Assembly (NCBI GenBank): GCA_002428525.1
Contig: DIWU01000003.1
Span: forward strand, 16,662-80,661
Source: a bacterium UBP14_UBA6098
GTDB taxonomy: Bacteria > UBP14 > UBA6098
Direction: 5' to 3'
DNA: 64,000 nucleotides
This document shows positions 22,419-41,775 of this stretch, in pieces; positions within the stretch are counted from its first letter, which is position 1, and each line of letters starts with the position of its first letter. Below the pieces are notes generated by a model. It was not told the DNA's origin. It ran no database searches and saw only the letters and a program-made list of their open reading frames with translations. Made by a program: the position numbers and the translations under genes.

Positions 22419-23088
22419 CTAACGGTTTTGGATACTGTTGGGGGTCGTTGTAGAGGCCGGTGAGTTTGGCGTATGGCTCGCTCGAGTTCTGCGAGTATGC
22501 TTTGCGATATCTTCTGCCGGTGAGGTAGGTCCATTTGACGCCGAGGTAGGGAATCGTTCTGCCGAACTGCCAACTGCCGTAAAGCCCGATATCGACATGC
22601 TGAAATCGGTAGGAGTCAACATAGTGAAGAACGCCTCCGCCGAAGAACACCTCGTCGTTGCTGACTGTAGTGAGCCAGTTCGTGACGGCGTAAAGCCGGA
22701 CCGGCTGTTTCGAGATTCTGCGGCAGTTGAAGGCCGGATACCATACGGCGAAATGGGTTTTCATCCCGAGGCCGAAGGCGAGCTCTTGGCTTCCGTTGAA
22801 GTTGGAGTAGGCCCTCGAGACAGCGGGGAAATTGAGGTCGGCCATGCCGAGAAGGCCATAGGCCTCAGTCCAACGGAAGATCCCGAGCGAGGGCTTGACG
22901 ATCAACCTTTGGGAGTTGAGGTTGTAATTTGGGCCGACCTCGTAGCGAATAAGCCATTTTTCGTAGTCGAACTCCATGGATAGCGAGAACTTTTCGTAGG
23001 GCGTCTCCTTCGTCGGGTTTCCGATGAGAAGGGCCATCGTCGGGCCGGCGAGGGCGAGCATTAGGTTTAGAAGTAGTATCCGCTTCAT
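22264..23088 (-). CDS. Putative outer-membrane beta-barrel protein (~275 aa), encoded 22 nt after the giant lipoprotein gene
   Basis: GGAGG RBS followed by an ATG at 23088. Signal peptide MKRILLLNLMLALAGPTMA. Alternating aromatic/hydrophobic strand-like segments rich in Y/W/G (FAVWYPAF, VRLYAVTNWLTTV, VDIGLYGSWQFG, LGVKWTYLTG, YVLSLETSYWG). Its size fits a 10-14-strand barrel. Confidence 0.5.
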   Translation of the reverse strand: MKRILLLNLMLALAGPTMALLIGNPTKETPYEKFSLSMEFDYEKWLIRYEVGPNYNLNSQRLIVKPSLGIFRWTEAYGLLGMADLNFPAVSRAYSNFNGSQELAFGLGMKTHFAVWYPAFNCRRISKQPVRLYAVTNWLTTVSNDEVFFGGGVLHYVDSYRFQHVDIGLYGSWQFGRTIPYLGVKWTYLTGRRYRKAYSQNSSEPYAKLTGLYNDPQQYPKPLVGLDIDLGKGYVLSLETSYWGKSETSIGVGLSQVYSPNRNEIEEDQAIERP

Positions 23089-23110: not shown

Positions 23111-26100
23111 TTAGTCTCTTCTGCCGAGATAAGCCTCTGCGGGGACAATAGCAGTCTGAGGCGGAACCTCGGCCGGGATTTCGAATTCAGAGGGCGGCGA
23201 CGGGCGGCGTCTCGAGGAGTATGTCACGGGGACATTGATTGTTCCGCCGGTGCTGTTGATCCTCGCGATGATGACGCCCGAGCTTGGGTAGTTAGTATCC
23301 GGCGCGGCCGCTACCGTGAAAGAGATCTCTCCTGTCGGGCCGGTGACGCCCGATGTCGGGGGCAAGACGGTTGCGTTTGCGCCGAACAGCTCGACCAGCT
23401 CGCCGCAGATCGGGTTCTTCCATTGATCGACGATACGGACGCTGACGGGGAAGTCATAGCCGTAGGGCACGCTTTCCGGTGCGGTGATCTTGGATTCCTC
23501 GGAGTTGGGCGTGTCGTGTTTGAGGAAGATTGTGTCCGACTGACTTATTCCACCGACCGTGCCGGTGACCCTTGCGAGGCCGCCGGTGTCCGAGGCGCAA
23601 TAGTTGTCGATATAGACATTGCGGGCGGTGTATCGCCCGATGGCGTAGCTGGCGTAGCACTCGTTAGTTGTGTAGATCGGCGAGATCACACTCCCCCAGT
23701 CTGTGACGAGCTGAACAGTCGTGCTGTCGGTGACTGGATTCTCGTTGACATCCCAAACATCGACGCGGACATCGGAGAAGCCTGTCGAGTCGGCATAGGT
23801 GAGGCCCGGCAGGACGCTGATATCGATTCGGTTCGGCCTTCCGCTGGCATAGAATGAAACCGAGCCTTGGCGGATTCCGCTTGTATCTCTTGTTTCCGCG
23901 GTGACTTCGACGACGCCGTCTGTGCGCGGACTCGAGGAGAACCATGTCGCGAAGGCGAAGCCGGAGTCGTTGGTTGTGGCGGAGGTTGTGATCGCGCCCT
24001 CGTCGGAGGTGAACCACACAGCGGTTCCCGGGGCGACCGGGTTGAGGAACTCGTCGGTGATGATTGCGAGGATCTGGTTGGGAACGCCGTCAACATCCCA
24101 GCCGCGGACATTGCATTCGTATGCCGAGACGGAGACATTGCGGGGAAGCCCGCTTCCGACCGTGATTCTCGGCGCACGCGTGACGAAGGTTCCGCCGCCG
24201 GGGAGGTAGGCTGTAGCCTCGACGACGATTGAGCCGGATCTGTCGCCGGCGCGGAGTGTCGCGCTGGCTCTGCCGTTGATTGTATAGACCGTGTCGCTAA
24301 TAAGGGTGCCACCGGGGATAAGCTCGGGATCGAGAGAACCTCCGGTTGGATATGCGACGATTCGGAAGACGACAATACTGCTGTCGCGGACGGGGTTGTC
24401 GTATTGGTCGTAGATGACTGCGCTGATGACCGATTGATCGACCTCGCCGACACCGCGGATATAGATGAAGTCCCGGCTGACAGCAATGTCAGTTGTATGC
24501 GGCGGGCCGGCGTAGAGGAGGAAGTCCTTTCTCGCAGTGAGAGAGCCGACGCGGGCAACGATTCCAGTAAGTCCGGCTTTTAGGCCGGGGGCATAGTTTG
24601 TTCGGTAATTACCGCTGTCGTCGGTGGCGACGACAGGGTCTGCGATACTTCCCATACCGGTGCTATCGACTGAGATATAGACATAGGTTCCGCGCGCGAC
24701 CGGGTTTCCGGCGGCGTCCGTGACCATGCCTGTGACTGCGCTGAGTGTGCTACTTCCGACAGTCGCGGTATCGGGTGTGACGAAGATGGTGATTGCATCG
24801 GCCGGGCCGGCGTCATAGATGACCTCGACGGCGATTGTTTCGGTTTGGCAGGAGGCCCAAACTGTATCGACGCTCGGCCTGTCGGCGGAGACGAGAATCG
24901 CGGTCGCGACGCCGCTTTCGAGGGAATCGAGCGGCGCGATCAAGCCGTATTTAGCGGTGAATCTAACGATAACGCCGTCGGAAACCGGGTTGCCGAGGCT
25001 GTCGGTGACGATAGCTCGGACATTAGCGGTGGAGGTTCCGTCTGCGGGAAGGCCGCGCGGGGTCACAGAAAGGGCGATATTCGCAGTCTTGGTCGGGATG
25101 AACTCCACCGGCAGATAGCCTGTGACGCCGCCGGTCGAGGCCTGAAGATAGGTGTTGCCTATTCGGTTCGGCGCGGTGATTCTGAAGGGCAGTCTGCCAT
25201 CGGAGCCGGTGACGCCGATCGGAGGAACGACGGTTCCGGTGGCGAGCGTGAGGTTGAGCGTCGCGCCCGGAATTCCGTTTCCGAAGGCGTCCTCGACGCT
25301 TATCGAGGCCTTGATCGTGTCCTCGCCGTCGGCCTTAAGTTGGACATAGTTGATTTGCTCGTAGTCAAGTGCTCCGAGCGTGTCGAAGCGAATTGTCGAG
25401 ACATTGCCCGGCTGGAAACTGACCTCGAGCGTTTCGACCGAGGCGATCGTGTCGAAGCCGCCGAGGCCGTCCGGAAGGATGCAGTAGGCGTAAATGGATG
25501 TGCTTCCGACGAAGGTCGGGGCTATGAGGTTTATTCGGGCGAAGCCGTCGGAGGTTGTGACGAAGCTTGGGTTGAGCAGGGCGGGCTGGCTTCCGGGGGT
25601 GACGATTTGGCCGAAGCGGACGCCTGTTCCGTCGGCGATCTCCATGCCGGAGGAATCGGTGACGAAGGCGGAGACTTGGGTGGAGCTGACGCCGTCGGCG
25701 GGCATAAAGCGGTCTGCGACGGAGACATGTATCTCGTTGACATTTGTCGGCTGAAGCTCGACCTGCGTGATTCCGTCGGCGCCCTCGCACTCGGCGCGGA
25801 TGATCGCCACACCGGCGTATCTTCCGGCCCTGAAGGGGACATCGACGAGGCCGTCCTCGTCGGTGACATCGGCGGCCCAGATTGTGCCGTAGCCTGCGGG
25901 TTCAACGGAGAAATTAACCACATGGCCGATTCCGACCGGGTTGCTGGCCTGATCGAAGACCTGTCCGAAGATTCGGGTTGTATCGGTCTCGTTGGCTGTG
26001 AGAATTAGGTCGGCGGAGCTGAGCAGGATATAGTCCGGCGGGCCGGAGATGAAGCTGATCGTGTCCCACACTTCTATAAGGCCGCTTCGGGCGTAGAGAG

Positions 26101-29100
26101 TATCGAGGCCGGTGGAGGTATAGGAGCTGATAGTTGCGCGGGCGATACCGCCGGTAGTCGTGGCGAAGATCGGCGTGATGCTTCCGAGGTTGAGGCCGTA
26201 GAAGCGGACTGTGGTGCCGTCGGAGATCGGCGAGCCGAGGGAGTCGAGCACGACCACCGAGACCTCGGCGGTGCTTGAGCCGTTCGCGATGAGGGTCGGC
26301 GGGATGATAGTAAGCGTGACATCGCTGACCTGAGTCGAGATGAACTCGATCAGTATATTGCCCGTTGCGGAGCCGGAGGTGATTGTCACATTGGAGAAGC
26401 CGCTTGTGTTTCCGGCGATGAGCCTGACTGTGACATAACCGGCGGTGTCGGTGTAGGAGGTTGGGATTATCGTTCCGAGGGTGGCCGAGAAATTCACCGC
26501 GACGCCTGAGGCGACGGGATTGCCGTATTGATCGAGAACTCGGACGGTAATCATCGATGAATCGACGCCGTTTGCCTCGATAATCTCGCGATCGGCGGTC
26601 ACTTCGATGACTGCCGGCGGCCCGGGAATAAACTGGACGAACTGTGTATCGACGGCCGCTCCGCCGGCGCTGGCGGCCACTGCTACCGAGTCGAAGGGGC
26701 TGGTTCCGGCCTTGAGAGTGCTAAGGGCGATTCCGCCCGAGGTATAGGCGACTGCGGGATTGATTATACCGTGCGTTGTGCTGAAGCGGACAATCGTCCC
26801 GTCGGAGACGGGCAGGCCGGCCGAGTCGAAGACGACCGCGGTGAGACTTGCGGTCGAGGAGCCGTTCGAGATGAGAAGCGGCGGATCCACAACTAAGACT
26901 AAGGAATCCGCGGTGAGCGGGATAAATTGGATCGTCGCGTAGTTAGTCGCGCTTCCGCAGGTGGCCGAAAGGCTTGCGACGCCGTAATCGGTGCCGGAAA
27001 CGACGACCGCTTGGGCGTAACCGACGCTATCGCCGGGCCAAACTCCACCGGTGGCGCTGATTGGAGTGACATAGCCTTTGTTGATGCTGAAGTTGACCGC
27101 GAGGCCGTTAGCGACGGGGTTTCCGAAGGCGTCGCGAACTCGGACGATAACGGTTTGCGTGTCTGCGCCGTCGGCGATCATAGTCGGGTTGATCTGGTGG
27201 AAATCGAGAATCGATGGCGCTCCCGCGACGAACTCGACCGCGACGGTATCCTTCAACGTCTCAGTGACTGTCGCGACGACTTGATTATCACCGACGATAA
27301 CACCGGAGGTAAGCGTCGCAGTGGCTTGGCCGCCGCTTGTATAGACAGTGCGCGGGTTGACGACACCGGTTCCGATCACTTCGAGGAAGACGGGAGTCCT
27401 ATCGGAGACCGGGCGGGAGCCGTCGATGCTCGAGGTGTCCAGCACTGTGACGGTTATATTGCTTGTCGAGGTGCCGTTTGCGATGATACGAACCGGATTC
27501 GCGACTAAATCGACGAAGTTCGCCTCGATGGCGAGGTATTGGATTACCCTGCTTCCGACCGCGGAACCGCTACGGGCGGTAAGCAGTGCGGGGCCGGTTT
27601 CGGTGCTCGAAATATAGGTTCTCGCCCTTCCGGTGGCGTCCTCGACGACTGTCGGCGTGATGACCGTGCCGCGGGTGGTTTCAAAGGAGACGCTCGTGCC
27701 TATCCTGACCGGATTTCGGAATTCGTCGAGGACATAAACGGCCTGTTCCATTCCGCTACCGTCGGCCGGAAGCGAATCCGAGAAGGCCGGATCGAACTCG
27801 ATAACCGCGGGGTCTCCCGGCTCATAGACAACCGAGACGACATCCTCGACGGTGGCGCCAACCGTTGCGCTGATACTATCTGTTCCGACGGCCAGCGGCG
27901 CTGTGAGCGTCGCCGTTGCGATTCCGCCGGAGGTGAAGGCGATGCGCGGGTTGATTATTCCGTTGGGCGCGGCGTTAATATGCTGGAAGGACACGCGCGT
28001 TCCGTCGGAGACCGGCAGGCCGACCGAGTCGAAGACATAGGCGGTCACTTCGGCGGTGCTGATACCATCGCCGGGGAGCCTTGCGGGAACTATATTCAGG
28101 ACGATTTCGGCGGCGAGTAGCGAATCGAAGCGAACTTGAACGAAATCGATGGCGTCGCCGCTTCGTATCGTCACGAGGGCGTCACCGGGGACTGTGCCGG
28201 AGGTGAGGCGTGTCGTCGCGAAGCCGCTGGTGTTTGTGAAGGCGGTCGCGCCGATCGACCCGAGTGTTGTTGTGAAGGAGACGGCGGTTCCGGGGGTGAC
28301 GGGGTTGGAATATCTATCGAAGACGGTGCAGGAAACCGCGACATTGGAGGAGCCGTCGGCGAAGATAGAATCGAGTTCGGCGTAGGCATCGAGGCGGTTG
28401 GCCGGCCCCGGAAGAAGTCTGAGTGTCATGTTAGCCGTATCGGATTCGGCTGTAGCCCAAACGCCGATCTGGCCGGCCAGAGTGTCCGAGCGGAGGTAGA
28501 TCGTCGCGATGCCGGAATCGGTGAAGGCGATCGCGGGTTCGGGGTGCGCCCATCCGACCGAATCCACCCAGAAGGTGACTTGCGTGCCGTTGGAGATGAG
28601 GTGTCCGCCGTCGGAGTAAACATGGGCATAAACCTTGGTTCGGCTTGTGCCGTTGGCCCTCATCTCGGTCGAGTCGGCGAAGAGGACGATATTATCGACA
28701 TCGGTCGGGTGCATATAGACCTGATGGTATCCGGCGGCGTCGTCGCAACGTGCCTGAATGATCGCATCGCCGGGCTGAATATCGGCGGTAAGTAGCGCGC
28801 GGGCGACGCCCATCGTGTCGGTGATTGCCGAGCTGACGATTGTTCCGCGGTTGGTTTGGAAGCTGACTGTTTTGCCGGCGAGCATACGGTTGCCGTATTG
28901 GTCTAAGACCCGGGCGTAAATGGTTATATCGTCGAAGCCGTCGGCCCAGATCGTGTCTCTGCCGGGGTAGTCGAGGTCGAGGGTGTCGGCCCAGACCTCG
29001 ATTGTCGCGGCGGGGCCGGGGATGAGGAGGATTCGAATGCTGTCGCTAATCTCCACCGCGGGGATGACGGTTGTGTCGGTGACGGAACCGATGACCCACG

Positions 29101-32100
29101 CGGAGCGGGTTCCGACATCGGTGCTTGCGGTGAAGGTCGTCACGCAACTTCCGCCGAGGGTTTGTTTCGGTGAGACGACGATGCCCATTGTGTCCGGATC
29201 GACGCGGAACCTCACGACTGTGCCGTCGGAGACGGGACTGCCGTCGGTGTCGAAGACTTGGCAGGTGATTATCGATTGGGACATGCCGTCGGCTACGAGC
29301 TGAACCGGGTTGGCGGTCAGAAGCAGTGTTCCGACCATACTTTCGCGAAGGATAACCTCTGTGAGCTCGAAAACACCGGCGCTTTGCGCCCAAACGCGGG
29401 CGATTCCGGGGTCGGTGCCGGCCCTTAATATAGTATAGGCGTCGCCGGCCGAGTTGGTGAATGTGTTCGAGGGTGCGATAGATCCGAGGTCGGTGCCGAA
29501 TTGGACGGAGTTGCCGGAGAGCAGTCTGTTTCCGAAATCATCCAGCAAGGTGGCAACGACACGGGTTTCGTCGCGGCCGTTCGCGGCGATGCTTGCGGAA
29601 TCCGGATTAAGAACGATCGATGCGCATGATCCGGGGATGATCTCGACGAAGCCTTGATCGCCTCTCCCCAAGCCATCGCTGGCGGAGATCCAAGCCCTGC
29701 CGCGCTTTGTGCCGACGCGGAAGCGTGTTGTGGCGATTCCGGTCGAGGTATATGCGATTTGCGGGATCAGCGCGCCGAGGGTGTCGGCCGAGGTGAGGAG
29801 CGTATCGCCGATTGTGTCCGGCCAAGTCGCGAAGAATATCGGAGTGCCGTCGGAGACGGGGTTGCCGAAGGTATCGAGGACAGTCGCGCGACACTCGGTT
29901 TCAGTGTAGCCGTCCGCGGGGATAATACGGTCGGTGATTGTCAGCGAGATAGTGATAATATCGGTTTGGACAAAGTGAACATCGGTCTCGCCGCGTGCGG
30001 TCCCAGCGCGGGCGACGATTCGCGCAGTGCCGGTTGTGAAATCGCTACGGAGTGTCGTGATAACGATACCGCTGGAATTGGTCTCGTCGGAGAGCGGGAA
30101 GATTTCGCCTCTGGAGGTCGATAGATCAACCGTCACGCCACCGCGGACCGGGTTTCTGTAGCGATCGAAAACCGCGACGCTACATATCGCCGTGGAGAAG
30201 CTGTCCGCAGGCAGTGTGTCGGGCGTCGCCCAAACCGCTATGCTGTCCGGTTCGCCGGGGACAAGATCGCAACGGGTTGTGTCCGAGATGAAGCTTGCTG
30301 TGGTGTCGCCGATATATGCAACGATATTGCACGAGCCGGCGCGCGTGGAGGCGGTGAAGGTTGCGTTGATTTTGCCGCTGTCCGTGTAAACAATTGTCGG
30401 TGAGACGAAGCCGAGAAGCCCGAGCGAATCGGGGAGTGTGTAAAGCCTAACCGGTGTGCCGTCTGAGATCGGGTTGCCGGCCGAGTTACGAACCATACCG
30501 CTGACAGTGGCCGAAGCGAGGCCGTCCGCGACGAGCGAGTTGGGATCGACTGCAACCACGATGCTCGCGTCGGCGAGGCTATCGGGGAGGAAATCCACTC
30601 TGCCGATTCCGACCGCGGAGCCGGAGGTGGCCATCACGAGGGCTGTTCCGGGGGTGATCCCCGAGCGAAGCTGTGTAATCGCGATGCCGTTTGTATCGTC
30701 CACTGTTCCGGTGACGGCGAGAGAATCTATTGTTCCCAATGTGGTTGTATAGTTCACGAGATAACCGCCGTCAACGCGGTTTCCAACAGCATCGTAAACA
30801 TAGGTGCGAATCTGCGAACGCTGTTCGCCGTCGGCGGCAATGGCCTCGGGATCGGGGATAATATCTATCGATTGCGGCGGGCCGGAAACGAAGCGGACTA
30901 AGACCGTGTCGTCGATATATCCGCTATCGCCGGCCGATCCGACATAAGCGATAACAGTCGCGGTGTCCAACTCGGTGGAACTGCGAAGGCTCGAGGTCGC
31001 CACGCCGGCGATCGTGTAGGCCACTCCCGGATAGGCGAAGCCGACATCGGTTCTGAAGAATATCGGAGTGGAATCGGAGACCGCCATGCCCATCGAGTCG
31101 AGGGCAATCGCGCGAAGGCCGCAACTCGACACGCCATTGGCGATCAGCGACATGCTGTCGGCGAACAGATCGATCGAGGCGACATTGAGCGGAACCAGCC
31201 GCAGAATCTTCGTTCCGACCGGCCCCGCGGAGGTCGTCGCAGTGATGACTGCTGTTCCGGCCGAGGTTCCGGCGAGGAATCGGAAGGTGGTGGGTGCATC
31301 GAGGATCGTAAATCCGAAGGAGGGAACGATCGATCCGAGCGAGGCGACCGGCGAGATCGTCATTTCAATGCGGTTGCCGGATTCGACGGGATTTCCGAAG
31401 CGGTCGTAAACGAAAACGCGAATAGTGGAGGAATCGCGGCCGTCGGCGAAGATAATATCGCGCGGGGTTGTATCGGTTTCGGAAACCACCGATTGGACTA
31501 TGACCTCGAATGGGTCGCCGGGGACGAATTGCACTTGAACTGAGTCGTAGAGATAGGTCGAAGCATCGACCGAGACGGAGCAAATCACCGTGGCGGTTCC
31601 GGTTCTCGTCTCGGAGAACAGCTCGACAGAGGCCTCTCCCCCGACCGTCGTAGCGACGCCCTCGATCGAGCCGAAGTCGTCGCCGGCCGAATCGATGGAG
31701 CGGAAATCGATGCGGGTGCCGTCGCGAACCGGCTGGCCGAGGACATTTTGAATCCTCGCGGTGATAGTCGAATAGCTCTCGCCATCGGCGACAATTCGCC
31801 TCGGGTCGGCGCGGAGGCTGAGGTATTCCGGCGGCGCGGCCTCGAATCGGACTTGGCCGATTCCGACTCGTCCGCCGGCGGTGACATCGATTCGGGCGAT
31901 CGAAGGAACTGTGCCCGAGGTGAGTATAGCCTGCGCACTGCCGGAGCCGTCGGTGAAGGTATTCGCCGGTTGAATCGATCCGGCGGAGGTTACGAACTGG
32001 ACAGTGATTCCGGAGCCGAGGGGGTTGCCATAGCGGTCGAAGAACTGGGCATGCACGACGGTATAAGCCTCGCCGTCGGCGGGAAGCAGGGTATCTTCGG

Positions 32101-35100
32101 CCCAAACCCAAATGCTATCGACATCTCCGGGGACGAGGTCGAGGAAGGCATTATCGCAAATCGAGGTGATTGTGTCAACTGTGCAACATGCCTTGATCCA
32201 TACCCTTCCCGCGCTATCTCTGCTGAAGACCTGCACCGAGGCCTCTCCGGCCACAGTGAAAGCCAAGGTCGGCGAGAGCGAGGCGAGGGTGGTGTCGGTC
32301 GGCAGGCCGGGGGGCATTGTGTCGATTGAGAAATAGACCGGTGTGCCGTCGGTAGCGGGGCTTCCGAGGCTGTCGGTGACCATCGCGCGGGCGAAGGTCG
32401 AGGATCTGCCGTCGGCGACAAGCTCGGGGTCGTCGAGTGTGAGGTTGACGAAGCGAACCTCGGCGTTTGTAAGCGTGATATAGGTTTCGCCCCAAGCTGT
32501 GCCGGAGGTGGCTCGGATTCGCGCCTCGCCGGGGGTTCTTCCCGAGGTGAAATCGGCGACGACCAAGCCCGAGGGATTTGTAATATCGCTCGTGGGATCG
32601 ATAGTCCCGCGCGTTGCGGTGAATAAAACCGAATACCCCGCACCGACCGGATGATCGAAGCGGTCGAAAACAAGCACGGAACATCTGCTTGTGGAGAAGC
32701 TGTCCGCGGGAATCGAGGTCGGGGATGCCCAAACCGAGCAACTCGCCGCCGAGCCGGGAACGAGGTCGATGAGGACGCTGTCGATTACAGTGGCGCCGGC
32801 GCGGGCGACTATATAGGCCGGGCCGATGATAGTGCGCGAGTTGAAGACAGTCGCGAAATCGCCGCTATCGGTGGTGGCGATATTCGGCGTAATGAAGCCC
32901 ATACTATCGGGGTTGACGCTGAATGTAACCGGTGAGCCGTCTGACACGGGCATTCCCACCGCGTCGAGAACCCTGCCGGTCACGGAGGCGGTGCTACGGC
33001 CGTCGGCGACGACATCGCGCGGATCGACATAGAGGACGATGTTCCGGGCAAAGGTGCTGTAGAAGCTGACAGTCACCTGAGAGAGCGCATCGCCGGAATT
33101 CGCCCAAACGACTGCGGTTCCGGGGGTTGTGCCCGCATAGAGGAAGACCGAGGCCGCGCCGGTCATGTCGGTGAAGGTCATCGAGTCGATTGTTCCGAGT
33201 GTTGTTGTGAAACTGACGCGAACCCCCGCGCGGACGGGGTTGTTGTATTGGTCATAAACGAGGACGCGCACTTCGGTGAAGGTGTCGCCGTCGGCCGGGA
33301 TGTCGTAGGGCGGCGGCGTGAACTCGATAATCGCCGGCGGGCCGGGGATGAACTCCACGGTTGTCGAGCCGGTGACGCTGTCGCCGGCGTCGCCTGTGAT
33401 CGTGGCGAAGCCCACTGTTGTCGAGGCGCGGAGGGTTGTCGTGGCCTCGCCGGAACTGGTATAAGCAACTCCGGGGAATACAAAACCGGAGTCTGTGCTG
33501 AATCGCACCGGTGTGTTATCCGGCACGCCTACGCCCATGGAGTCGAGAACGATCGCGCGGATCGTCGTCGTGCTGACGCCGTCTGCGACGAGGCGGACAT
33601 CGTCGGCGGAGAGGAAAATCTCGCTTGCGACAATCGGGGAGAAGAAAAGCTCGTCGTAGCCGGTAAAACCGCCGGCGGTGGCCATGACGGTAGTATTGCC
33701 GGAAACATTGGAGAATATCTGCACGGAGACGGTGCCGGTGCTGTCGGTATAGCCGCGGTCGAAGACGTATGTTCCAATCGGCGAGGCCGAGAAGATGACC
33801 AATTGGCCGATAATCGGGTTGCCGTATTCATCGAAGACATAGGCCCAGATTGTCCCTCTCGATTCGCCGTCGGCGAAGACGACTGTGTCGGAGGAATCGA
33901 CCCAGACCGTGATTCCGGCCGCCGCGCCGGAGATGAAGTCCACGATTGCGCTGTCTTCGAGGCCGAAGACACTTCCGTGAACCCATGCCTTTGCGGTATA
34001 GTTCGGTGAGCGCCAAGAGATTGTCGCGTCGCCGCCGGAGGTGGCCGCAAAGGGCGGCATTGTGCCGACCGGAGCGGTTCCTCCGAAGATATTATTTGAA
34101 AAATCGACGACTATTCCATCGGAGACCGGCAACGCGGAGGCGTCGAGGACTCTCGCGACGACAATCGCGGAGTCAACGCCGTTGGCGGTGACGCGGTTCG
34201 GTGTGGCCGTCACCGAGATGAAGGCCGCTGTGGTCTCGATCTGCTCGATATAAATCCATGCATTGGCGAGGTCCAAGCTCGCGCCGATGCGGACGAGGCC
34301 GACGAAATCGCTGGCCGAGTATTCAGTTGTGGCGATTCCGGAGGCGTTCGTCACAACCGGCGAGATGATCGAGCCTTGATCGCTTGTGAAGACGACCTGC
34401 TGGCCGGCGCCGAGGAGGTTGCCGTATTCGTCGGTGCAGATTGCGGTAATCGTAGTCCTCGCTCTCGGATCGGCCAGCAGGATAGTATCTGCGGCTTCGA
34501 TCGAGATATAGTTCGCCGCACCCGACTCATAGCGAATAAACAGTGTATCGGCTATGGTATCTGTCGTTGTTATCGTCGAGGCGACGACTGTGTCTATTCC
34601 GGCGTCGGAACCGGTAATAAGCGTCGTATTGACGAAGCCGCCGACTGTGAACTCGTAAATGCTGGAAAAACCGCCGAGGACGCTGGAAAAATCTATGCGA
34701 GTGCCGTCGGAGACCGGACGCCCGATACCATCTACACAGTAAGCGGTGAGGCCGAGGCCCGAGCCGTCGATGGAAATATGAGTGCTGTCAGCTGTGAGAA
34801 TCAGAGTATGTGCCTCCGAGCCGATCAGCTCGATGTTCGTCATGGCCGTCGGCGCACTGCCGGCGTTCGCTTGAATCCTTGCGGTGCCGATTGTAACACC
34901 GGCGGTGAATGTAGTCGTCGCGATGCCGTTCGTGTCCGTGACTGAGGGCGAGATTATCGAGCCGAGATCGGTGGTGAAGCTGACCGAAACGCCCGCCTCC
35001 GCGGGGTTGCCGTAGACATCGGTGCAGGTCGCCGTGACAGTAGAGGTGCTGACGCCGTCGGCGGAGAGGATTGGCGGAAAGGCGGTAAGGGCGATGCTCG

Positions 35101-38100
35101 TCACCTCGCCGGGGAGGATCTGCACTGTTTTCGTGTCGGCGATTGCACCGACAGTTGCGATGACAATGCAAGAATCGGCTGTGGTGTTCGGCCTGAACTC
35201 GGCAGTGGCAATCCCTCCGCTTGTTACAGGGCTGGAAGGAACTATAGTTGCCAAGGTGTCCGGCAAGACCGTAAATGTAACATGCGTGCCGTCGGTGATC
35301 GGGTCGCCGATGCTGTCATAGACATTCGCAGTAACATTCATCACACTGCCAATGTGAATGCGCGCGCTGTCGGTCGAGAGGACGACCTCGCCTGCGGAGG
35401 AACCGGTGAGCCATATTCGGACATTCTCGCTCACCGATGGGAAAAGCGACAGTTTCGCGTTGAGGACTGCCTCGCCGGCGGTGTAGAAGCTCCTGAAGGT
35501 TGTATGCGCCTGACTGCTATCACTGTCGTCGGTCCAGTCGGTCAGTGTCACCGGTGCGCCGAAGATCTCGCTTCCGGCGGCCATCTCGAATTCAACGAGG
35601 AAACCGGGGCCGACGCGATTACCGTGGGCGTCGAACACCGAGGCTGTAATCGCGCTTGTGCTCGAGCTGTCGGCGAGAATAGTGTCAGGCTCGGCGGTGA
35701 GGTGAATCCTCGAGGGGGCGTCGGGGACGAAGAAAACCGTCATTGTGTCCTCGGCCCAAGTGCTGTCGCTGGTCGCGACGCTGACATAAACGAAGGTGCT
35801 ATCGATCGTTGTCGGGGAGATCAGGTTTATTCGTGCGATGCCCGCGGGAAAAGACCCGCCGGTTAAAACTGTGAAGCTGTCGGCCATCGGCGCAAATGTC
35901 GAGATTCCCTCGAATGACTCGCGGATAGGATCGTTTCGCTCGGCCCTCATGCGCGGCGCGGAGGTTCTTGCGATCTCCTCTTTTTTCCGCTGAATATCGA
36001 GCTTTGCGCTTGAGAGCGCGGCGGCGCGTGACGCGGCGGGAAGGAAGGTTCCTCTTTCCGTGCGGAATATGACCGGCGTGCCGTCCGAGCAAGGCCTGTC
36101 CTCATCGTCGGTAACATAAGCCGTAATAAGGACGCTGTCCGCGCCGTTTGCAACCGCCGAATCGACATCCATAAGAAGACGGATCTCGTCAGGTAGAATC
36201 GGGTAGAAATATATATCCCCGCTTCCGGGAGTAGCTCCAGAGGCCGTCGCATAGACCGTATGCCAACCCACGGAGCGCGAGCTTGTAAGCTTGGTTTCCG
36301 CGCGCCCCGAAGCATCGGTATTGCTGGAAACAGGGTTAACCGTGCCTTCATCCGGGTCGAAAGTGATCAAGTGTCCGGCGAGAACGGGGTTGTGATAGGG
36401 GTCGGAGACAAAAGCGGAGACCTGACATGTGTCCTCGCCATCGGCGAGGATGCTGTCTCTGCTGAATGTAACGCTGTCCACCTGGCTTGGATCTCCCGGC
36501 AGGAACGGTAACATCAAAGTATCTGTCGCGGTGATGACCGTATCGCCTAAAATAGTATCGTAAATCGCGAACCATGCCGCGACGATGCAGGTATCCGCGA
36601 GGGTTCCGCTGGTGAGTGTGACGCTGGCGAAGCCTCCCGAGGTGACGGCTTGGCGGAGGTCCATCGATTCGAAGACGAATTTGCCTCTGCCTCGCATTGC
36701 CTTCGCGCCGGAGAGTGTCCCGAGGCTGGAGGAGAAATTGATACGGACGCCGTCGGAAACGGGGTTGAACAATGAGTCGAGCACCTCGGCGGTGATCGTC
36801 GAGGAGCTTGTGCCGTCGGCGACGAGCTGGTTCGGTTGGGCGTTAAGCTGTATGTATCGTGGAATCGAGCTTGAAAGGAGCACCTCGGTGAATCCGGACA
36901 CGCCTTCGCAGGTCGCGATAACGCGTGCGTAGCCCGAGATCACTCCGCTCGTAAGGACTGAGCTCGCGCTTCCGGTGGTGTCGGTGTTCGCGGAGGGCGG
37001 GAAAATCGTGCCCTTGTCCGTTTCAAACGTCACCGACCATCCGGAGGAAGCAATGTTACCGTATTGGTCGTAAACGGTAGCTGTGATGCGTGTTGTGTCG
37101 TGACCGTCGGCGAGGATCGGGCTTCGTGCGGCTTCGACGGTGATACTCATCGGGTCTCCGGCGGTGAAGCGAACCTCAATCGAGTCCTCGATAGTGCCGC
37201 CGGTGCCGACCGAGGCCGAGGCGGTGCAAAGCACCCTGCGCGCAGTAGTGCTACTGCGGAGCTTGACATAGGCATAGCCGCCCTCGGTTTGCGCGACGCG
37301 CGTGCTTGTCGGGCGACCGCGGAGATTCATAGGCTTGGTGTTTTTAAGGCCGGCGACATTGGCCTTTTTCGGGTTATCGGCCTTGAGATCGGCTATTGGC
37401 AGAAGGGTTCCATCCTCGGAAGAGAAGGTTATTTGCGTGCCGTTCGGCGCGGGGGTGCCGGTCGCGCCGACTGTGACATAGGCCGAAAGTATAAGCTCGG
37501 AAATCCCATCCGCCGGAATAGACGAAGGCTCGGCATGAAGGTCGATAAAATCGACATCCGGTATATCGAGCACCCAAACTGTATCGCGCGCGGAGACTGT
37601 ATCGCCGATGCCGAAAACTGTGGCGTCGATGATAATCCTCCGGCTGTCGCTGGGGACTGTGAAATGCGCCGTTGCGATCCCGTTGCTGTTTGTCAGTGCG
37701 AAACTGTCAACGATCATAACGAGGTCGCCGGGGTTGCCCTCGATGAAGTTGAACCGGACCTGATGGCCGGCGAGTGGCGAATAGGTCTCGCCGAGGACGC
37801 GCGCCTCGAGGTTCACCCGGCTGACACCGTCGGCGAAGACAGTGTCGGGAATGGCGTTGAGGAAGACATAGTGGGGATCGATGAAGTTGATCGGCAATAT
37901 ATCGATGGTCATTCGTTTTGTTCTGATCTGCTCGGCGGAGACCTTTGCGGTGATCGTCGCGGAGCGGCGCGTCGAGTCGGGGAAGGTGATGAAGGTCGTG
38001 GTCGCTATGCCGTTCTCGTCGGTGATAATACTTCTATTCTCGATCGTGTCGATGTTGGTCGAGAACTCGACATTGACCTCTTTGAGTGGCTTTCGCGAGT

Positions 38101-38308
38101 TCGCGCCGATAATGAGCGCGTGGATCTCGGTTTGGCCTCCCGAGACGATTATTGGATAGTCGGCCCATAGGCTGTCGATGAGGTAGTCGGTTTCGACATC
38201 CCAGCCGAAATTGCCGCTTCTTCCGCATCCGGTGTTAAAAATCAGAATAATCGATAAAAGGAAGAGAGTGAACCAGAGGCTGGTTCTAAGTATTTTTACC
38301 CCGGTCAT
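23111..38308 (-). CDS. Giant (5,065-aa) surface lipoprotein composed of ~47 tandem bacterial Ig-like (Big_1/invasin-type) domains
   Basis: Single 15.2-kb ORF. N-terminal signal with a Cys after the hydrophobic core (MTGVKILRTSLWFTLFLLSIILIFNTGCG). About 47 repeats of ~95-100 aa with a recurrent ..ADG.S....T..V.D..GNPV..G..V.F.T..G.I.......TD..G.A..T..A.. signature, in two alternating subtypes. No T9SS CTD at the C-terminus. Confidence 0.85.
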   Translation of the reverse strand: MTGVKILRTSLWFTLFLLSIILIFNTGCGRSGNFGWDVETDYLIDSLWADYPIIVSGGQTEIHALIIGANSRKPLKEVNVEFSTNIDTIENRSIITDENGIATTTFITFPDSTRRSATITAKVSAEQIRTKRMTIDILPINFIDPHYVFLNAIPDTVFADGVSRVNLEARVLGETYSPLAGHQVRFNFIEGNPGDLVMIVDSFALTNSNGIATAHFTVPSDSRRIIIDATVFGIGDTVSARDTVWVLDIPDVDFIDLHAEPSSIPADGISELILSAYVTVGATGTPAPNGTQITFSSEDGTLLPIADLKADNPKKANVAGLKNTKPMNLRGRPTSTRVAQTEGGYAYVKLRSSTTARRVLCTASASVGTGGTIEDSIEVRFTAGDPMSITVEAARSPILADGHDTTRITATVYDQYGNIASSGWSVTFETDKGTIFPPSANTDTTGSASSVLTSGVISGYARVIATCEGVSGFTEVLLSSSIPRYIQLNAQPNQLVADGTSSSTITAEVLDSLFNPVSDGVRINFSSSLGTLSGAKAMRGRGKFVFESMDLRQAVTSGGFASVTLTSGTLADTCIVAAWFAIYDTILGDTVITATDTLMLPFLPGDPSQVDSVTFSRDSILADGEDTCQVSAFVSDPYHNPVLAGHLITFDPDEGTVNPVSSNTDASGRAETKLTSSRSVGWHTVYATASGATPGSGDIYFYPILPDEIRLLMDVDSAVANGADSVLITAYVTDDEDRPCSDGTPVIFRTERGTFLPAASRAAALSSAKLDIQRKKEEIARTSAPRMRAERNDPIRESFEGISTFAPMADSFTVLTGGSFPAGIARINLISPTTIDSTFVYVSVATSDSTWAEDTMTVFFVPDAPSRIHLTAEPDTILADSSSTSAITASVFDAHGNRVGPGFLVEFEMAAGSEIFGAPVTLTDWTDDSDSSQAHTTFRSFYTAGEAVLNAKLSLFPSVSENVRIWLTGSSAGEVVLSTDSARIHIGSVMNVTANVYDSIGDPITDGTHVTFTVLPDTLATIVPSSPVTSGGIATAEFRPNTTADSCIVIATVGAIADTKTVQILPGEVTSIALTAFPPILSADGVSTSTVTATCTDVYGNPAEAGVSVSFTTDLGSIISPSVTDTNGIATTTFTAGVTIGTARIQANAGSAPTAMTNIELIGSEAHTLILTADSTHISIDGSGLGLTAYCVDGIGRPVSDGTRIDFSSVLGGFSSIYEFTVGGFVNTTLITGSDAGIDTVVASTITTTDTIADTLFIRYESGAANYISIEAADTILLADPRARTTITAICTDEYGNLLGAGQQVVFTSDQGSIISPVVTNASGIATTEYSASDFVGLVRIGASLDLANAWIYIEQIETTAAFISVTATPNRVTANGVDSAIVVARVLDASALPVSDGIVVDFSNNIFGGTAPVGTMPPFAATSGGDATISWRSPNYTAKAWVHGSVFGLEDSAIVDFISGAAAGITVWVDSSDTVVFADGESRGTIWAYVFDEYGNPIIGQLVIFSASPIGTYVFDRGYTDSTGTVSVQIFSNVSGNTTVMATAGGFTGYDELFFSPIVASEIFLSADDVRLVADGVSTTTIRAIVLDSMGVGVPDNTPVRFSTDSGFVFPGVAYTSSGEATTTLRASTTVGFATITGDAGDSVTGSTTVEFIPGPPAIIEFTPPPYDIPADGDTFTEVRVLVYDQYNNPVRAGVRVSFTTTLGTIDSMTFTDMTGAASVFLYAGTTPGTAVVWANSGDALSQVTVSFYSTFARNIVLYVDPRDVVADGRSTASVTGRVLDAVGMPVSDGSPVTFSVNPDSMGFITPNIATTDSGDFATVFNSRTIIGPAYIVARAGATVIDSVLIDLVPGSAASCSVWASPTSIPADSFSTSRCSVLVFDRFDHPVGAGYSVLFTATRGTIDPTSDITNPSGLVVADFTSGRTPGEARIRATSGTAWGETYITLTNAEVRFVNLTLDDPELVADGRSSTFARAMVTDSLGSPATDGTPVYFSIDTMPPGLPTDTTLASLSPTLAFTVAGEASVQVFSRDSAGRVWIKACCTVDTITSICDNAFLDLVPGDVDSIWVWAEDTLLPADGEAYTVVHAQFFDRYGNPLGSGITVQFVTSAGSIQPANTFTDGSGSAQAILTSGTVPSIARIDVTAGGRVGIGQVRFEAAPPEYLSLRADPRRIVADGESYSTITARIQNVLGQPVRDGTRIDFRSIDSAGDDFGSIEGVATTVGGEASVELFSETRTGTATVICSVSVDASTYLYDSVQVQFVPGDPFEVIVQSVVSETDTTPRDIIFADGRDSSTIRVFVYDRFGNPVESGNRIEMTISPVASLGSIVPSFGFTILDAPTTFRFLAGTSAGTAVITATTSAGPVGTKILRLVPLNVASIDLFADSMSLIANGVSSCGLRAIALDSMGMAVSDSTPIFFRTDVGFAYPGVAYTIAGVATSSLRSSTELDTATVIAYVGSAGDSGYIDDTVLVRFVSGPPQSIDIIPDPEAIAADGEQRSQIRTYVYDAVGNRVDGGYLVNYTTTLGTIDSLAVTGTVDDTNGIAITQLRSGITPGTALVMATSGSAVGIGRVDFLPDSLADASIVVAVDPNSLVADGLASATVSGMVRNSAGNPISDGTPVRLYTLPDSLGLLGFVSPTIVYTDSGKINATFTASTRAGSCNIVAYIGDTTASFISDTTRCDLVPGEPDSIAVWATPDTLPADSFSTAICSVAVFDRYRNPVRGGVTVDLSTSRGEIFPLSDETNSSGIVITTLRSDFTTGTARIVARAGTARGETDVHFVQTDIITISLTITDRIIPADGYTETECRATVLDTFGNPVSDGTPIFFATWPDTIGDTLLTSADTLGALIPQIAYTSTGIATTRFRVGTKRGRAWISASDGLGRGDQGFVEIIPGSCASIVLNPDSASIAANGRDETRVVATLLDDFGNRLLSGNSVQFGTDLGSIAPSNTFTNSAGDAYTILRAGTDPGIARVWAQSAGVFELTEVILRESMVGTLLLTANPVQLVADGMSQSIITCQVFDTDGSPVSDGTVVRFRVDPDTMGIVVSPKQTLGGSCVTTFTASTDVGTRSAWVIGSVTDTTVIPAVEISDSIRILLIPGPAATIEVWADTLDLDYPGRDTIWADGFDDITIYARVLDQYGNRMLAGKTVSFQTNRGTIVSSAITDTMGVARALLTADIQPGDAIIQARCDDAAGYHQVYMHPTDVDNIVLFADSTEMRANGTSRTKVYAHVYSDGGHLISNGTQVTFWVDSVGWAHPEPAIAFTDSGIATIYLRSDTLAGQIGVWATAESDTANMTLRLLPGPANRLDAYAELDSIFADGSSNVAVSCTVFDRYSNPVTPGTAVSFTTTLGSIGATAFTNTSGFATTRLTSGTVPGDALVTIRSGDAIDFVQVRFDSLLAAEIVLNIVPARLPGDGISTAEVTAYVFDSVGLPVSDGTRVSFQHINAAPNGIINPRIAFTSGGIATATLTAPLAVGTDSISATVGATVEDVVSVVYEPGDPAVIEFDPAFSDSLPADGSGMEQAVYVLDEFRNPVRIGTSVSFETTRGTVITPTVVEDATGRARTYISSTETGPALLTARSGSAVGSRVIQYLAIEANFVDLVANPVRIIANGTSTSNITVTVLDTSSIDGSRPVSDRTPVFLEVIGTGVVNPRTVYTSGGQATATLTSGVIVGDNQVVATVTETLKDTVAVEFVAGAPSILDFHQINPTMIADGADTQTVIVRVRDAFGNPVANGLAVNFSINKGYVTPISATGGVWPGDSVGYAQAVVVSGTDYGVASLSATCGSATNYATIQFIPLTADSLVLVVDPPLLISNGSSTASLTAVVFDSAGLPVSDGTIVRFSTTHGIINPAVAYTSGGIALSTLKAGTSPFDSVAVAASAGGAAVDTQFVQFIPGPPAVIEVTADREIIEANGVDSSMITVRVLDQYGNPVASGVAVNFSATLGTIIPTSYTDTAGYVTVRLIAGNTSGFSNVTITSGSATGNILIEFISTQVSDVTLTIIPPTLIANGSSTAEVSVVVLDSLGSPISDGTTVRFYGLNLGSITPIFATTTGGIARATISSYTSTGLDTLYARSGLIEVWDTISFISGPPDYILLSSADLILTANETDTTRIFGQVFDQASNPVGIGHVVNFSVEPAGYGTIWAADVTDEDGLVDVPFRAGRYAGVAIIRAECEGADGITQVELQPTNVNEIHVSVADRFMPADGVSSTQVSAFVTDSSGMEIADGTGVRFGQIVTPGSQPALLNPSFVTTSDGFARINLIAPTFVGSTSIYAYCILPDGLGGFDTIASVETLEVSFQPGNVSTIRFDTLGALDYEQINYVQLKADGEDTIKASISVEDAFGNGIPGATLNLTLATGTVVPPIGVTGSDGRLPFRITAPNRIGNTYLQASTGGVTGYLPVEFIPTKTANIALSVTPRGLPADGTSTANVRAIVTDSLGNPVSDGVIVRFTAKYGLIAPLDSLESGVATAILVSADRPSVDTVWASCQTETIAVEVIYDAGPADAITIFVTPDTATVGSSTLSAVTGMVTDAAGNPVARGTYVYISVDSTGMGSIADPVVATDDSGNYRTNYAPGLKAGLTGIVARVGSLTARKDFLLYAGPPHTTDIAVSRDFIYIRGVGEVDQSVISAVIYDQYDNPVRDSSIVVFRIVAYPTGGSLDPELIPGGTLISDTVYTINGRASATLRAGDRSGSIVVEATAYLPGGGTFVTRAPRITVGSGLPRNVSVSAYECNVRGWDVDGVPNQILAIITDEFLNPVAPGTAVWFTSDEGAITTSATTNDSGFAFATWFSSSPRTDGVVEVTAETRDTSGIRQGSVSFYASGRPNRIDISVLPGLTYADSTGFSDVRVDVWDVNENPVTDSTTVQLVTDWGSVISPIYTTNECYASYAIGRYTARNVYIDNYCASDTGGLARVTGTVGGISQSDTIFLKHDTPNSEESKITAPESVPYGYDFPVSVRIVDQWKNPICGELVELFGANATVLPPTSGVTGPTGEISFTVAAAPDTNYPSSGVIIARINSTGGTINVPVTYSSRRRPSPPSEFEIPAEVPPQTAIVPAEAYLGRRD

Positions 38309-38557
38309 GTTAGCTCCTCGGGTTGATATTAAAATCGAAACTATCTAACTATGTTTCATGTAATTATATTAAATCCGTTGAAGTGATTTGTCAAGCCTAA
38401 ATTCTTTCTTCATGTCATTTAACAAAATGAGCATGAGACCGAAAAAGTGATTCCGGTCTTTCAAAATCGGTATTATATTTTATCAATTATAGGCGAAAGC
38501 GAAGATATAGCAACTTCTTCATTGCCCTCGAGATGCCGTTAAATACCTTATCTGCGG

Positions 38558-39520
38558 CTAAAAGACGAGGCGAAGCGTATCGCGGAAGATGCCCTTCGCT
38601 CCGAAGCCCTCTTTGAAATGCGCGAGGCCGAAATTCGGCTCCATATTGAGGGTATAGGTTCCGAAGTCGAACCATTCGAAGCCGCGGGCGATGCACCAGC
38701 GGAAGATCTCCCAGAACAGGAGGTTCAGGGGGCGGAATTTCTGCGCAGACTCGCGATGGCTGATATAGAAGGCGATGACTGCGCGCTCGTTGACCTCCCA
38801 GAGGTTGACACCGGCGACGGGCTCGCCCTCGGCGAGGGCGGTCATTTGGTGGATTTTTTCGGGGAAGCGGCGCTTGAGGTCGAGAAGCTCCTCGAGGGTG
38901 TGCGTGGGTTTGACATTGTGGCGCGCGCCGAGGTTGGCCTCGAGAATCGAATAGAATGGCGGGATTTCGGCATCGAGATCGATTATGACACCGAGCTTGG
39001 CGGCCTTGCGGGTTGAGGTTCGCGCCTCTGGGGTGAAACGCGCGAAGGTGGCCTCGTCGGTTGGGCCGAGGCGGAGAACCGCGGTCAGTTCGCGCTTGAC
39101 GAAGAAGGCGCCCCTTCGCATGAGAGCGAAATCGACATGCTCCTCGGGCATCGCGTGGTAGATCGTCGGGACGCGTGTGAACTCGATGCCCTCGTAGCCG
39201 CTTCGTTTTGCCCAATCGATCCAAAGCTCGACCATGCGGTGCGCGCCCTCGACGCCGACCTCCGGATCGAGGGCGATTCCGCCGAAGCTCGCGCCCGGGT
39301 GGCTGACATGAACTATCTTGCCGTCGCGGTTGCGGGTTGCCCCGGGAAGGATTCCGAGCATCTTGCCGCGGTGCTCGAAGAAAAGGTGGCGCGCGTCGAA
39401 GCGCCCGGCCGGGTGGTAATCGAGGAAGTTCTGTGTGTGGAACATCGTGCCGTTATTGGCCTTGGAGGCGAAGGCCTCCCATTTTTCGCGATGCTCGGGG
39501 GTGTATTCGACGATCTTCAT
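38558..39520 (-). CDS. GNAT-fold acyltransferase (FemAB/BioF2-like family), function unknown
   Basis: 320 aa MKIVEYTPEHREKWEAF... The length and overall pattern resemble FemAB-like/GNAT proteins. Assignment is by general family resemblance only. Confidence 0.45.
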   Translation of the reverse strand: MKIVEYTPEHREKWEAFASKANNGTMFHTQNFLDYHPAGRFDARHLFFEHRGKMLGILPGATRNRDGKIVHVSHPGASFGGIALDPEVGVEGAHRMVELWIDWAKRSGYEGIEFTRVPTIYHAMPEEHVDFALMRRGAFFVKRELTAVLRLGPTDEATFARFTPEARTSTRKAAKLGVIIDLDAEIPPFYSILEANLGARHNVKPTHTLEELLDLKRRFPEKIHQMTALAEGEPVAGVNLWEVNERAVIAFYISHRESAQKFRPLNLLFWEIFRWCIARGFEWFDFGTYTLNMEPNFGLAHFKEGFGAKGIFRDTLRLVF

Positions 39521-41775
39521 AGGTCATTCCTAATGAGTGCTATTTTTCCGCGGGCGATGCCCCTTGAAGAGGGGGCGATGAGGATATAAACCCCGCTCGC
39601 GACGGGTTTGCCGGCTGTGTTGCGGCCGTCCCATTCGACAGCGGCGGTGGGGCCTTTTTCGGCGCTGGTGATTGTGCGAACGAGTCCGCCGTCGGCGGAG
39701 AAGATGTTCAGATCGGCGTCGGCGGGGACACCGGAAATAATCACGCTCGTAGTAGCCCAGCCGTCCCATATGAAAGGATTCGGTGCGGAAATTAGGTCGG
39801 AGAGCTTATCCCCCTCGCTACCGAAGCCCGTCGTTAGGACACCGATCGCGCCCTCGCCCATAAACCAAACCTCGCCGTTGGCGGGATTGACTTTAACCGA
39901 ATAGAGATAATCGACCGGCAGGTCGGTCATCTCGTGGGAATCGGCGTTTGTGCTGAGGCGGGATTTGATTGCATGCCATGTCGTGTCGGAGCTTCGGAAC
40001 ATAGCCGCGCCGTCGTCGGTGGCAATCCAGACATTGTCCCACTCGTCGATCGCGACATCGGCAACACCGAGGGAAATATGGTCGGGGATAGTTCTTTGTA
40101 GGACAATTCCGAGGCTCGGCTCGATCGTCGCGACACCGCCGTCCGCGGCAATCCAAGCCCGTCCCTCGCTGTCCGAGGCGATTTGGAAGACCGAGGAACT
40201 GGGCAAGGCGTCTCGGTAGGCGTAGATTCGGTCGTCGGAGGTTTCGGCGATATTCGACCCGAGGGCGATTTCGACGACACCCTCGTCCTTGATGACAAGC
40301 CAAACTCTCGATTCGTCGACGGCGATGCCGTGAATATTATTCGAGGTGATGCCGGTGGAGCCGCTGTAGTATGAAACAACCGGCGAATCGAGACCGCCGT
40401 AGGGGCTGAAGGCCGCGACCGCCAGCGCCGAGGTAGCGTAAAAGTTCGTCACCCAGATTAGATCGCGGAAGGGATCGTAGGCCAAGGCGCGGCAAACGAC
40501 CACCGAGGGCGCGCCGGTGATTCCACGGAGAACGCTGTTCGTCTCGTTGAAGACTTGCCATTCGCCGTCAGAGGCGCGGCGGAAGACGCCATAGCCGTTC
40601 GTCCCTACCCAGAGGGCGCCGGTCGCGTCGATATCGATGCTGTAGGCTGTGAAAATTCCCCGCTCAACTATCGCCATAAGCGAATCGGAGGTTGAGATTG
40701 TCCAATCGGAGAAGGCCTCCCATCGGTCGTTTTCGAGGCGCATCACACCGAGATTCCGTGCGATGAGCCATACAGCGCCGTCCGGGGCGAAGGCTACATC
40801 GGAGAAGCCGGTGCCGGAGGGGGTATTCGGGGAAATCACGCGGACAGTGTCTTCGCGAAGGACGCCGAAGCCGACCTCCATACCGACGAAAAGCTCGCCG
40901 TCGTGGGAGGTTCCGCCGTGAACCGCCCAGTGTTCGCTGAGGCGGACTGGAGCGAAGGTGCCGTTCGGCCTGTGTTTGAAAAGGCCTGAGCCTCCGGCGG
41001 CATAGAATTCGTTATTGAAGTAGAAGAAATCGTCGATTATTCGATTGAACATGTATGAATCGGTTAGTGTATCGACGATTGTGCCATCGGTCCAGAAGAT
41101 CGAGGGCTGTCCCGAGATGGGTTCGAGGGCGAACCATACACCGCCGGAATCGGCGAAGACTCCGTTGACCGGCCGCGAGGTACTCATGTTGCGCCATCCG
41201 CCGGGGACAAAGAGGTTATCCGATAGCCGGGCGAAGGCGAGGCCGGAGGCGGTGGCGGCCCATATGAGGCTGTCGTCGGCGGAGATCGCTGTGACGGCGA
41301 TGTTGCGGTCGAAGCTCCCGAGCTTGGTGTAGTTCTCGGCGATCTCGATGGGGTCTGTGCCCGAGAAGATATTCAGTTTGGATATGCCGACCGAGGTCGC
41401 GACGAAGAGGTTCTCGCCCGAGGCGATGAGGTCGTTCGCAGAGATATTCGACCGAACAAGGTCTGAATTCGTCCGAAAGCGATTGCCCTCGAGGCGGCCT
41501 ATCGAGCCGTTAGAGGCGCAGTAGAAAAGCTTGTCCCCTAAAACCGCTAAGCCTGTGATATCAAGGCCGCCGAGGCCGTCGAGGTTGGTCATGACCGTCG
41601 AGCGCTCGAGGGCGGGGTTATAGCGGATTAATCCGCCTTTGGTTCCGACGAAGACCTCGTCGCCGAACGAGGCGATCGCGTTTGTGTAATGCGCGTCGGC
41701 GTAGGTTCTCCACGACCCGGCCAGCTGACCGAAGACCGAGGATAAAAGAATAATAAGAATTAAAAAATGCTTCAT
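39517..41775 (-). CDS. T9SS-secreted beta-propeller protein (two-component-regulator-propeller-like repeats) with C-terminal sorting domain
   Basis: Start taken at MKHFLILIILLSSVFGQ (ATG at 41775, overlapping the lnt stop in ATGA); the longer Arg-rich upstream extension is implausible. Repeated ~45-aa propeller-blade-like units (..G.W.GT..GL...D). C-terminal NPFIWDGWATTSVIISGVPADADLNIFSADGGLVRTI...SGVYILIAPSSRGIARGKIALIRNDL is a T9SS CTD. Confidence 0.7.
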   Translation of the reverse strand: MKHFLILIILLSSVFGQLAGSWRTYADAHYTNAIASFGDEVFVGTKGGLIRYNPALERSTVMTNLDGLGGLDITGLAVLGDKLFYCASNGSIGRLEGNRFRTNSDLVRSNISANDLIASGENLFVATSVGISKLNIFSGTDPIEIAENYTKLGSFDRNIAVTAISADDSLIWAATASGLAFARLSDNLFVPGGWRNMSTSRPVNGVFADSGGVWFALEPISGQPSIFWTDGTIVDTLTDSYMFNRIIDDFFYFNNEFYAAGGSGLFKHRPNGTFAPVRLSEHWAVHGGTSHDGELFVGMEVGFGVLREDTVRVISPNTPSGTGFSDVAFAPDGAVWLIARNLGVMRLENDRWEAFSDWTISTSDSLMAIVERGIFTAYSIDIDATGALWVGTNGYGVFRRASDGEWQVFNETNSVLRGITGAPSVVVCRALAYDPFRDLIWVTNFYATSALAVAAFSPYGGLDSPVVSYYSGSTGITSNNIHGIAVDESRVWLVIKDEGVVEIALGSNIAETSDDRIYAYRDALPSSSVFQIASDSEGRAWIAADGGVATIEPSLGIVLQRTIPDHISLGVADVAIDEWDNVWIATDDGAAMFRSSDTTWHAIKSRLSTNADSHEMTDLPVDYLYSVKVNPANGEVWFMGEGAIGVLTTGFGSEGDKLSDLISAPNPFIWDGWATTSVIISGVPADADLNIFSADGGLVRTITSAEKGPTAAVEWDGRNTAGKPVASGVYILIAPSSRGIARGKIALIRNDL

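Follow-up and report, generated by a model that had tools for sequence, protein, structure and literature searches.

The 64,000-nucleotide stretch of DNA that we analyzed (the window) contains an uninterrupted open reading frame of 15.2 kb at coordinates 23111–38308 of the minus strand, as had been reported in a preliminary description, beginning with an ATG and closed by a single terminal stop codon. Its 5,065-residue product is a predicted lipoprotein composed of repeats with Pfam matches to Big_1, and the mature form has a computed mass of 524.5 kDa and a pI of 4.27; an open frame of 5,065 codons could not have arisen by chance. A ribosome-binding site (GAGGAG) lies 5 nt 5′ of the ATG, and a sigma-70-like promoter is predicted, by consensus match only (TTGACA-17-TAATAT, 10/12 positions), approximately 58 nt 5′ of the ATG at 38366–38394 on the same strand.

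The genes surrounding the giant gene are also transcribed from the minus strand. Only 22 nt separate its 3′ end from a gene (22264–23088) coding for a 274-residue protein with a signal peptide that is predicted, from an AF2 model and from remote members of its family, to be an outer-membrane beta-barrel. This is followed by a gene for a TPR protein of approximately 810–897 residues (19725–22418; the start codon is uncertain), whose orthologues have a signal peptide, their genes overlapping the barrel gene at its 3′ end, by a cyclophilin-type PPIase gene with the lipobox FMTGC (19102–19710) that is co-conserved with the pair of giant gene and barrel even in locus L019, where wider synteny breaks, and by a co-conserved nitroreductase-family gene (18456–19097). 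No terminator-like site on the coding strand separates the giant gene from these downstream genes. Immediately upstream is a gene for a FemAB/GNAT-like acyltransferase (Acetyltransf_6; 38558–39520), which is kept in this position in two other lineages. The window also contains a PorZ-like gene (39517–42153), a PorU-like gene (57764–61882) and an Lnt gene (41772–43487).

Residues 1–28 of the giant protein (MTGVKILRTSLWFTLFLLSIILIFNTGC; 38225–38308, minus strand) consist of MTGVKILR, a 17-residue hydrophobic stretch (TSLWFTLFLLSIILIF) and the sequence NTGC, and thus provide the n-region, h-region and cysteine-ending lipobox of an SPII substrate, with a non-canonical asparagine at position −3. 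The cysteine at the end of the h-region is kept in all of the orthologues and short relatives examined, within the lipoboxes IGGC and AGAC of two orthologues (P0012 and L024) and WVGC, VASC and WLGC of three short relatives (L021, L025 and L026). A metagenome scan for further N-termini yielded a single locus. The lipoprotein-type signal proposed earlier is thus supported, and Cys28 is presumably lipidated. It is followed by a conserved tether, residues 29–45 (GRSGNFGWDVETDYLID; 38174–38224, minus strand), whose identity to the two orthologues read matches or exceeds that of the first Ig unit. The residues directly following Cys28 are GRSG. The Bacteroidota lipoprotein export signal is acidic, and because GRSG is unlike it, surface exposure of the giant protein is predicted by no known rule.

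Searches of the two halves of the protein against Pfam gave highly significant matches to both Big_1 (PF02369; E values of 1e-155 and 1e-141) and Invasin_D3 (PF09134; 2e-143 and 2e-157), with 16–19 matching stretches each, and the protein clearly belongs with these families. An AF2 model of one A+B pair of units has a pLDDT of 95.3, and its best PDB matches in Foldseek are intimin D0-D1, InvE, InvD and invasin (1cwv; TM 0.75), in full agreement with the Ig-like, Big_1/invasin fold that had been suggested. A long tandem array of about 47 units had been described; an HMM trained iteratively on the protein's own sequence gives a count of 48, the first at residues 46–123 and the last at residues 4955–5016.

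Most of these units belong to two alternating subtypes, A and B, and the signatures that had been given for them are recovered in the consensus of 20 aligned pairs. The mean identity between units is 0.22–0.24 at odd lags and 0.26–0.29 at even lags, and the excess within the same parity class is highly significant (z = 12.2, 20,000 permutations). The alternation had been called strict throughout, with some 23 super-repeats. It is strict for units 3 to 43 (24794–37546, minus strand), each of which is nearer to its own parity class, but since units 1–2 and 44–48 break the pattern there are only about 20 clean A+B pairs. These pairs share 23–44% identity among themselves, and there is a weak signal of a higher-order repeat at a lag of four pairs (z = 2.6). 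Units 1 and 2 are divergent, membrane-proximal Ig units (37547–38173, minus strand). Two basic low-complexity segments, previously described as linkers, are present but are intradomain insertions in unit 3 (residues ~305–340; 37289–37396, minus strand) and unit 7 (residues ~748–830; 35819–36067, minus strand); they and a smaller insertion in unit 5 (residues ~533–555) occupy one common loop of these B-type units. Such insertions are found in an orthologue too, where they are poorly conserved.

The five non-alternating units at the C-terminus, 44 to 48 (23213–24793, minus strand), form what we refer to as the head. Units 44–46 are the best conserved between orthologues (63–79% identity in four genomes), and a short relative of 697 residues, which aligns best to residues 4430–5003, has retained this part of the protein. 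Beyond the head is a tail, residues 5033–5065 (RRRPSPPSEFEIPAEVPPQTAIVPAEAYLGRRD; 23114–23212, minus strand), noted previously as proline-rich and matching no sorting tag. We likewise found no exosortase, sortase or rhombosortase tag (PEP-CTERM, LPXTG, GlyGly-CTERM and others), the tail has no hydrophobic helix, and the last 566 residues of the protein match no NCBIfam family; to this can be added an RRR(R)P motif, which is conserved in a single subclade only and is accompanied there by an acidic tail on the neighboring barrel. The reported lack of a T9SS C-terminal domain (CTD) was also confirmed, as neither Pfam nor NCBIfam searches of the C-terminal half and the last 566 residues gave a match to Por_Secre_tail (PF18962), CHU_C (PF13585) or TIGR04183 at E ≤ 0.01, while six other proteins in the window do score, five of them at 2297–4492, 7067–9499, 39517–42153, 51490–53844 and 57764–61882, and a sixth, more weakly, at 15732–17324.

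Giant repeat-rich genes frequently break assemblies, and most of the database relatives of this protein are fragments on short contigs, raising the concern that the assembly is chimeric or has collapsed repeats, or that the gene is a pseudogene. A self-comparison at the DNA level had been proposed as a check, and it shows that the gene is not repetitive; TRF reports no tandem repeats, exact repeats do not exceed 17 nt, and the top off-diagonal match in a DNA self-BLAST is 76% over 120 nt. Repeat collapse can be ruled out on these grounds. The identical 5,065-residue product is found in three independent assemblies (one JGI and two Logan per-run assemblies), the copy in a third Logan contig is truncated at the contig end, and all four copies are 100% identical in DNA sequence across the last 6.6 kb of the gene. 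Orthologues in other species have lengths of 5,052, 5,055, 5,751/5,765 and 6,710 residues, and units 1–35 and 18–48 each have a collinear orthologue with 53–84% identity (50–84% overall), as against a mere 22–28% among the paralogous units within the protein. With non-repetitive DNA, agreement among separate assemblies and collinear one-to-one orthology of the units, the earlier view that the repeats are ancient and not an assembly artefact holds, and we consider an artefactual or decayed gene hardly credible. The giant gene is therefore genuine and conserved, and its host is a Zixibacteria-like member of the FCB group that bears a T9SS. We propose that a two-domain unit was duplicated long ago to give the A/B stalk, which has been frozen since. 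The host of the giant gene is uncultured.

The downstream partner genes, which are absent from the preliminary description, tell more about the locus than any other part of it. The 274-residue partner has 10–12 predicted strands, and its AF2 model, which is of moderate confidence (pLDDT 77), consists of beta structure throughout and has 11 long strands; at the C-terminus of the protein, a beta-signal-like GLSQVY precedes an acidic tail. It has no Pfam or NCBIfam family even at E ≤ 1, and the family, which has 66 representatives, was reached by a profile search followed by a Pfam scan of its remote members, which match OMP_b-brl, Chlam_OMP and Opacity. A barrel gene lies 3′ of the Big_1 gene at all seven GTDB loci and at three loci of close relatives, although the surroundings of close relatives are largely syntenic, so that independent support for the linkage comes from remote loci only. 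At six of seven of these, in unrelated contexts, the barrel homologue directly follows a Big_1 gene; five of the partners are 697, 852, 1,199, 1,667 and 6,710 residues long, and the sixth is truncated by a contig end, its final unit being recognized by the unit HMM. The 697-residue protein (L021) is paired with a barrel of 255 residues, and the 852-residue one comes from L025. The seventh homologue (P0047; E value of 4e-9) has no Big_1 neighbor and marks the edge of the family. The intergenic distance ranges from −14 to 80 nt at the 14 loci at which both genes were read, and is wider in L007. Together with lipoboxes at all three of the readable N-termini, this gene order points to a conserved cassette, new here, of a Big_1 lipoprotein and a small barrel, in which the barrel probably anchors or exports the lipoprotein.

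The closest parallels are with the inverse autotransporters (type Ve secretion: intimin, invasin, FdeC and YeeJ), which provide the top sequence and structure matches, share a tandem Big_1/Invasin_D3 rod, and likewise have an outer-membrane barrel genetically coupled to an Ig array. However, the barrel at this locus is a separate polypeptide of an OMP_b-brl-like clan and not IAT_beta, and the Ig protein is a lipoprotein with 48 domains, rather than the three to five of intimin and invasin. The giant protein has no Pfam match to a fused N-terminal 12-stranded barrel (IAT_beta/invasin_beta), residues 1–45 being signal and tether with unit 1 directly thereafter, and neither LysM nor the C-terminal lectin-like Intimin_C was found at E ≤ 0.01. 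As the partner is not of the IAT_beta family, we rejected its identification as a split intimin barrel. Two-partner variants of type Ve have been proposed, namely ZirT/ZirS/ZirU, SinH/SinI and the Rat-like proteins; for ZirT, and by hypothesis for the Rat-like proteins, Ig proteins that lack a barrel are thought to be exported in trans via a co-encoded one (PMC4943183).

Two groups of lipoproteins are also similar. InvL of Acinetobacter baumannii belongs to the intimin/invasin family, lacks a beta-barrel and has a lipoprotein anchor (PMC9245377), but has few Ig domains and a lectin-like cap, is T2SS-dependent and has no dedicated barrel partner. In LigA, LigB and LigC of Leptospira, a lipoprotein signal precedes a tandem series of Ig-like domains that have diverged moderately, and these proteins carry lipid and are displayed on the cell surface (PMC7821625). 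Their 12–13 domains are Big_2 and not Big_1, however, and neither an alternating super-repeat nor an adjacent barrel gene has been described for them.

In giant T1SS adhesins the Sec signal is missing, the T1SS signal is at the C-terminus, and ABC/MFP/TolC genes lie next to the adhesin gene. The giant protein is not one of these, having a Sec/SPII signal, no HemolysinCabind match and no T1SS genes in the window, although SiiE, LapA and MpIBP resemble it as 0.5-MDa-class rods of some 50 or more Ig-like domains that hold a distal binding region at a great distance from the cell (PMC6272769). Two domain subtypes also alternate along a long rod in the super-repeats of SasG (G5-E), Ebh (FIVAR-GA) and titin, which have other folds and come from other organisms. 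The 22% identity of neighboring units in the giant protein fits the idea that adjacent domains of diverse sequence are protected from misfolding. Periscope-type repeats, in contrast, are nearly identical in DNA sequence and variable in number, while here exact DNA repeats reach only 17 nt, each unit is individually conserved with a one-to-one orthologue, and three lineages have proteins of 5,052, 5,055 and 5,065 residues. The adjacency of TPR and barrel is similar in logic to Slam (TPR plus a DUF560 14-stranded barrel), but TPR and barrel are separate genes here and the barrel has no DUF560 match, and we rejected this assignment.

The explanation that we favor, with moderate confidence, is that the giant protein is a surface rod of approximately 170–190 nm with a conserved head, working together with the partner barrel. 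It would be exported by Sec, lipidated at Cys28 of the SPII-type lipobox, and then transported to the outer membrane, where its 48 Big_1 Ig-like domains would form the rod and the alternating stalk of units 3–43 would keep the five-unit head away from the cell; the surface fibril of about 200 nm proposed earlier is plausible. Most probably the barrel anchors the lipoprotein in the outer membrane, permits it to cross to the surface, or does both, much as the fused barrel would in intimin and invasin but acting in trans. In the giant versions the periplasmic TPR protein and the lipoprotein cyclophilin, encoded in the same transcription unit, would be plausible chaperones or folding factors. The gene, the number and fold of its domains, the alternation, the conserved lipobox, the cassette and the orthology of the individual units are results of the analysis, while lipidation, surface exposure, the role of the barrel, and a function in adhesion or as a spacer are all inferred.

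Other accounts of the locus need to be considered. The protein could reach the surface through a general machine, which might be a T2SS, the route taken by InvL and PulA, or else an unknown flippase for lipoproteins; the barrel would then be no more than a co-expressed receptor, a docking site or an unrelated porin. InvL is a precedent, as an invasin-like lipoprotein without a barrel whose surface display needs the T2SS (PMC9245377), and one of the remote cassettes, L026, has pseudopilin, T2SSE and MshEN genes around it; the barrel relatives, moreover, are from generic OMP families. No T2SS genes were found in the window, however, and tight linkage of the barrel to Big_1 lipoproteins in six unrelated contexts is hard to square with an unrelated porin, and we regard this account as unlikely. 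It is improbable that the protein is instead an envelope-internal structural component, such as a scaffold, that is held by its lipid in the inner leaflet of the outer membrane without ever being exposed, because a rod of 48 Ig domains would exceed the width of any periplasm several-fold and characterized Big_1 and Big_2 arrays are all extracellular. The Pfam and NCBIfam searches did reveal no recognized surface-export signal, and the head is the best conserved region, while host-facing adhesins of the intimin type diverge more toward the tip (PMC4943183).

There is also a slim chance that the giant protein is a cryptic T9SS cargo, its last Ig unit and tail forming a non-canonical CTD that is read by the products of the PorZ-like and PorU-like genes of the window. 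The CTDs of T9SS cargo have an Ig-like sandwich fold too, and in L012 the PorZ-like and FemAB-like genes have likewise been kept upstream. On the other hand, T9SS cargo are not normally lipoproteins, the CTD models that recognize six neighbors do not match this protein, and the C-termini of the short cassette relatives differ.

Returning to a surface rod that works with its partner barrel, we can put forward a more specific version, albeit as a long shot: the cassette might constitute an undescribed, split type-V-like route for the export of lipoproteins across the outer membrane. The stand-alone barrel would thread its cognate Big_1 lipoprotein, possibly C-terminus first, with the conserved basic RRR(R)P tail docking on the conserved acidic extension at the C-terminal, periplasmic end of the barrel in the giant subclade; extracellular folding of up to ~60 Ig domains, one after another, would drive export, with the lipidated N-terminus and the conserved tether remaining inside or beneath the barrel.

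Lipoprotein surface delivery is understood in few model systems, among them Slam, the T2SS, the Bacteroidota LES and BAM-assisted RcsF. A compact cassette that recurs in uncultured lineages, with cargo ranging from 6 to ~60 Ig domains, bears on this question, and because the short versions of 697–1,667 residues are small enough for E. coli, experiments on the idea are feasible despite the uncultured host of the giant protein. The clean alternation of two subtypes is also relevant to the question of how proteins with very long tandem arrays of domains escape misfolding. Finally, this Ig rod of half a megadalton has kept both its length and each of its domains constant across species, as a ruler or spacer might, in contrast to the quickly varying repeat numbers of most fibrillar adhesins.

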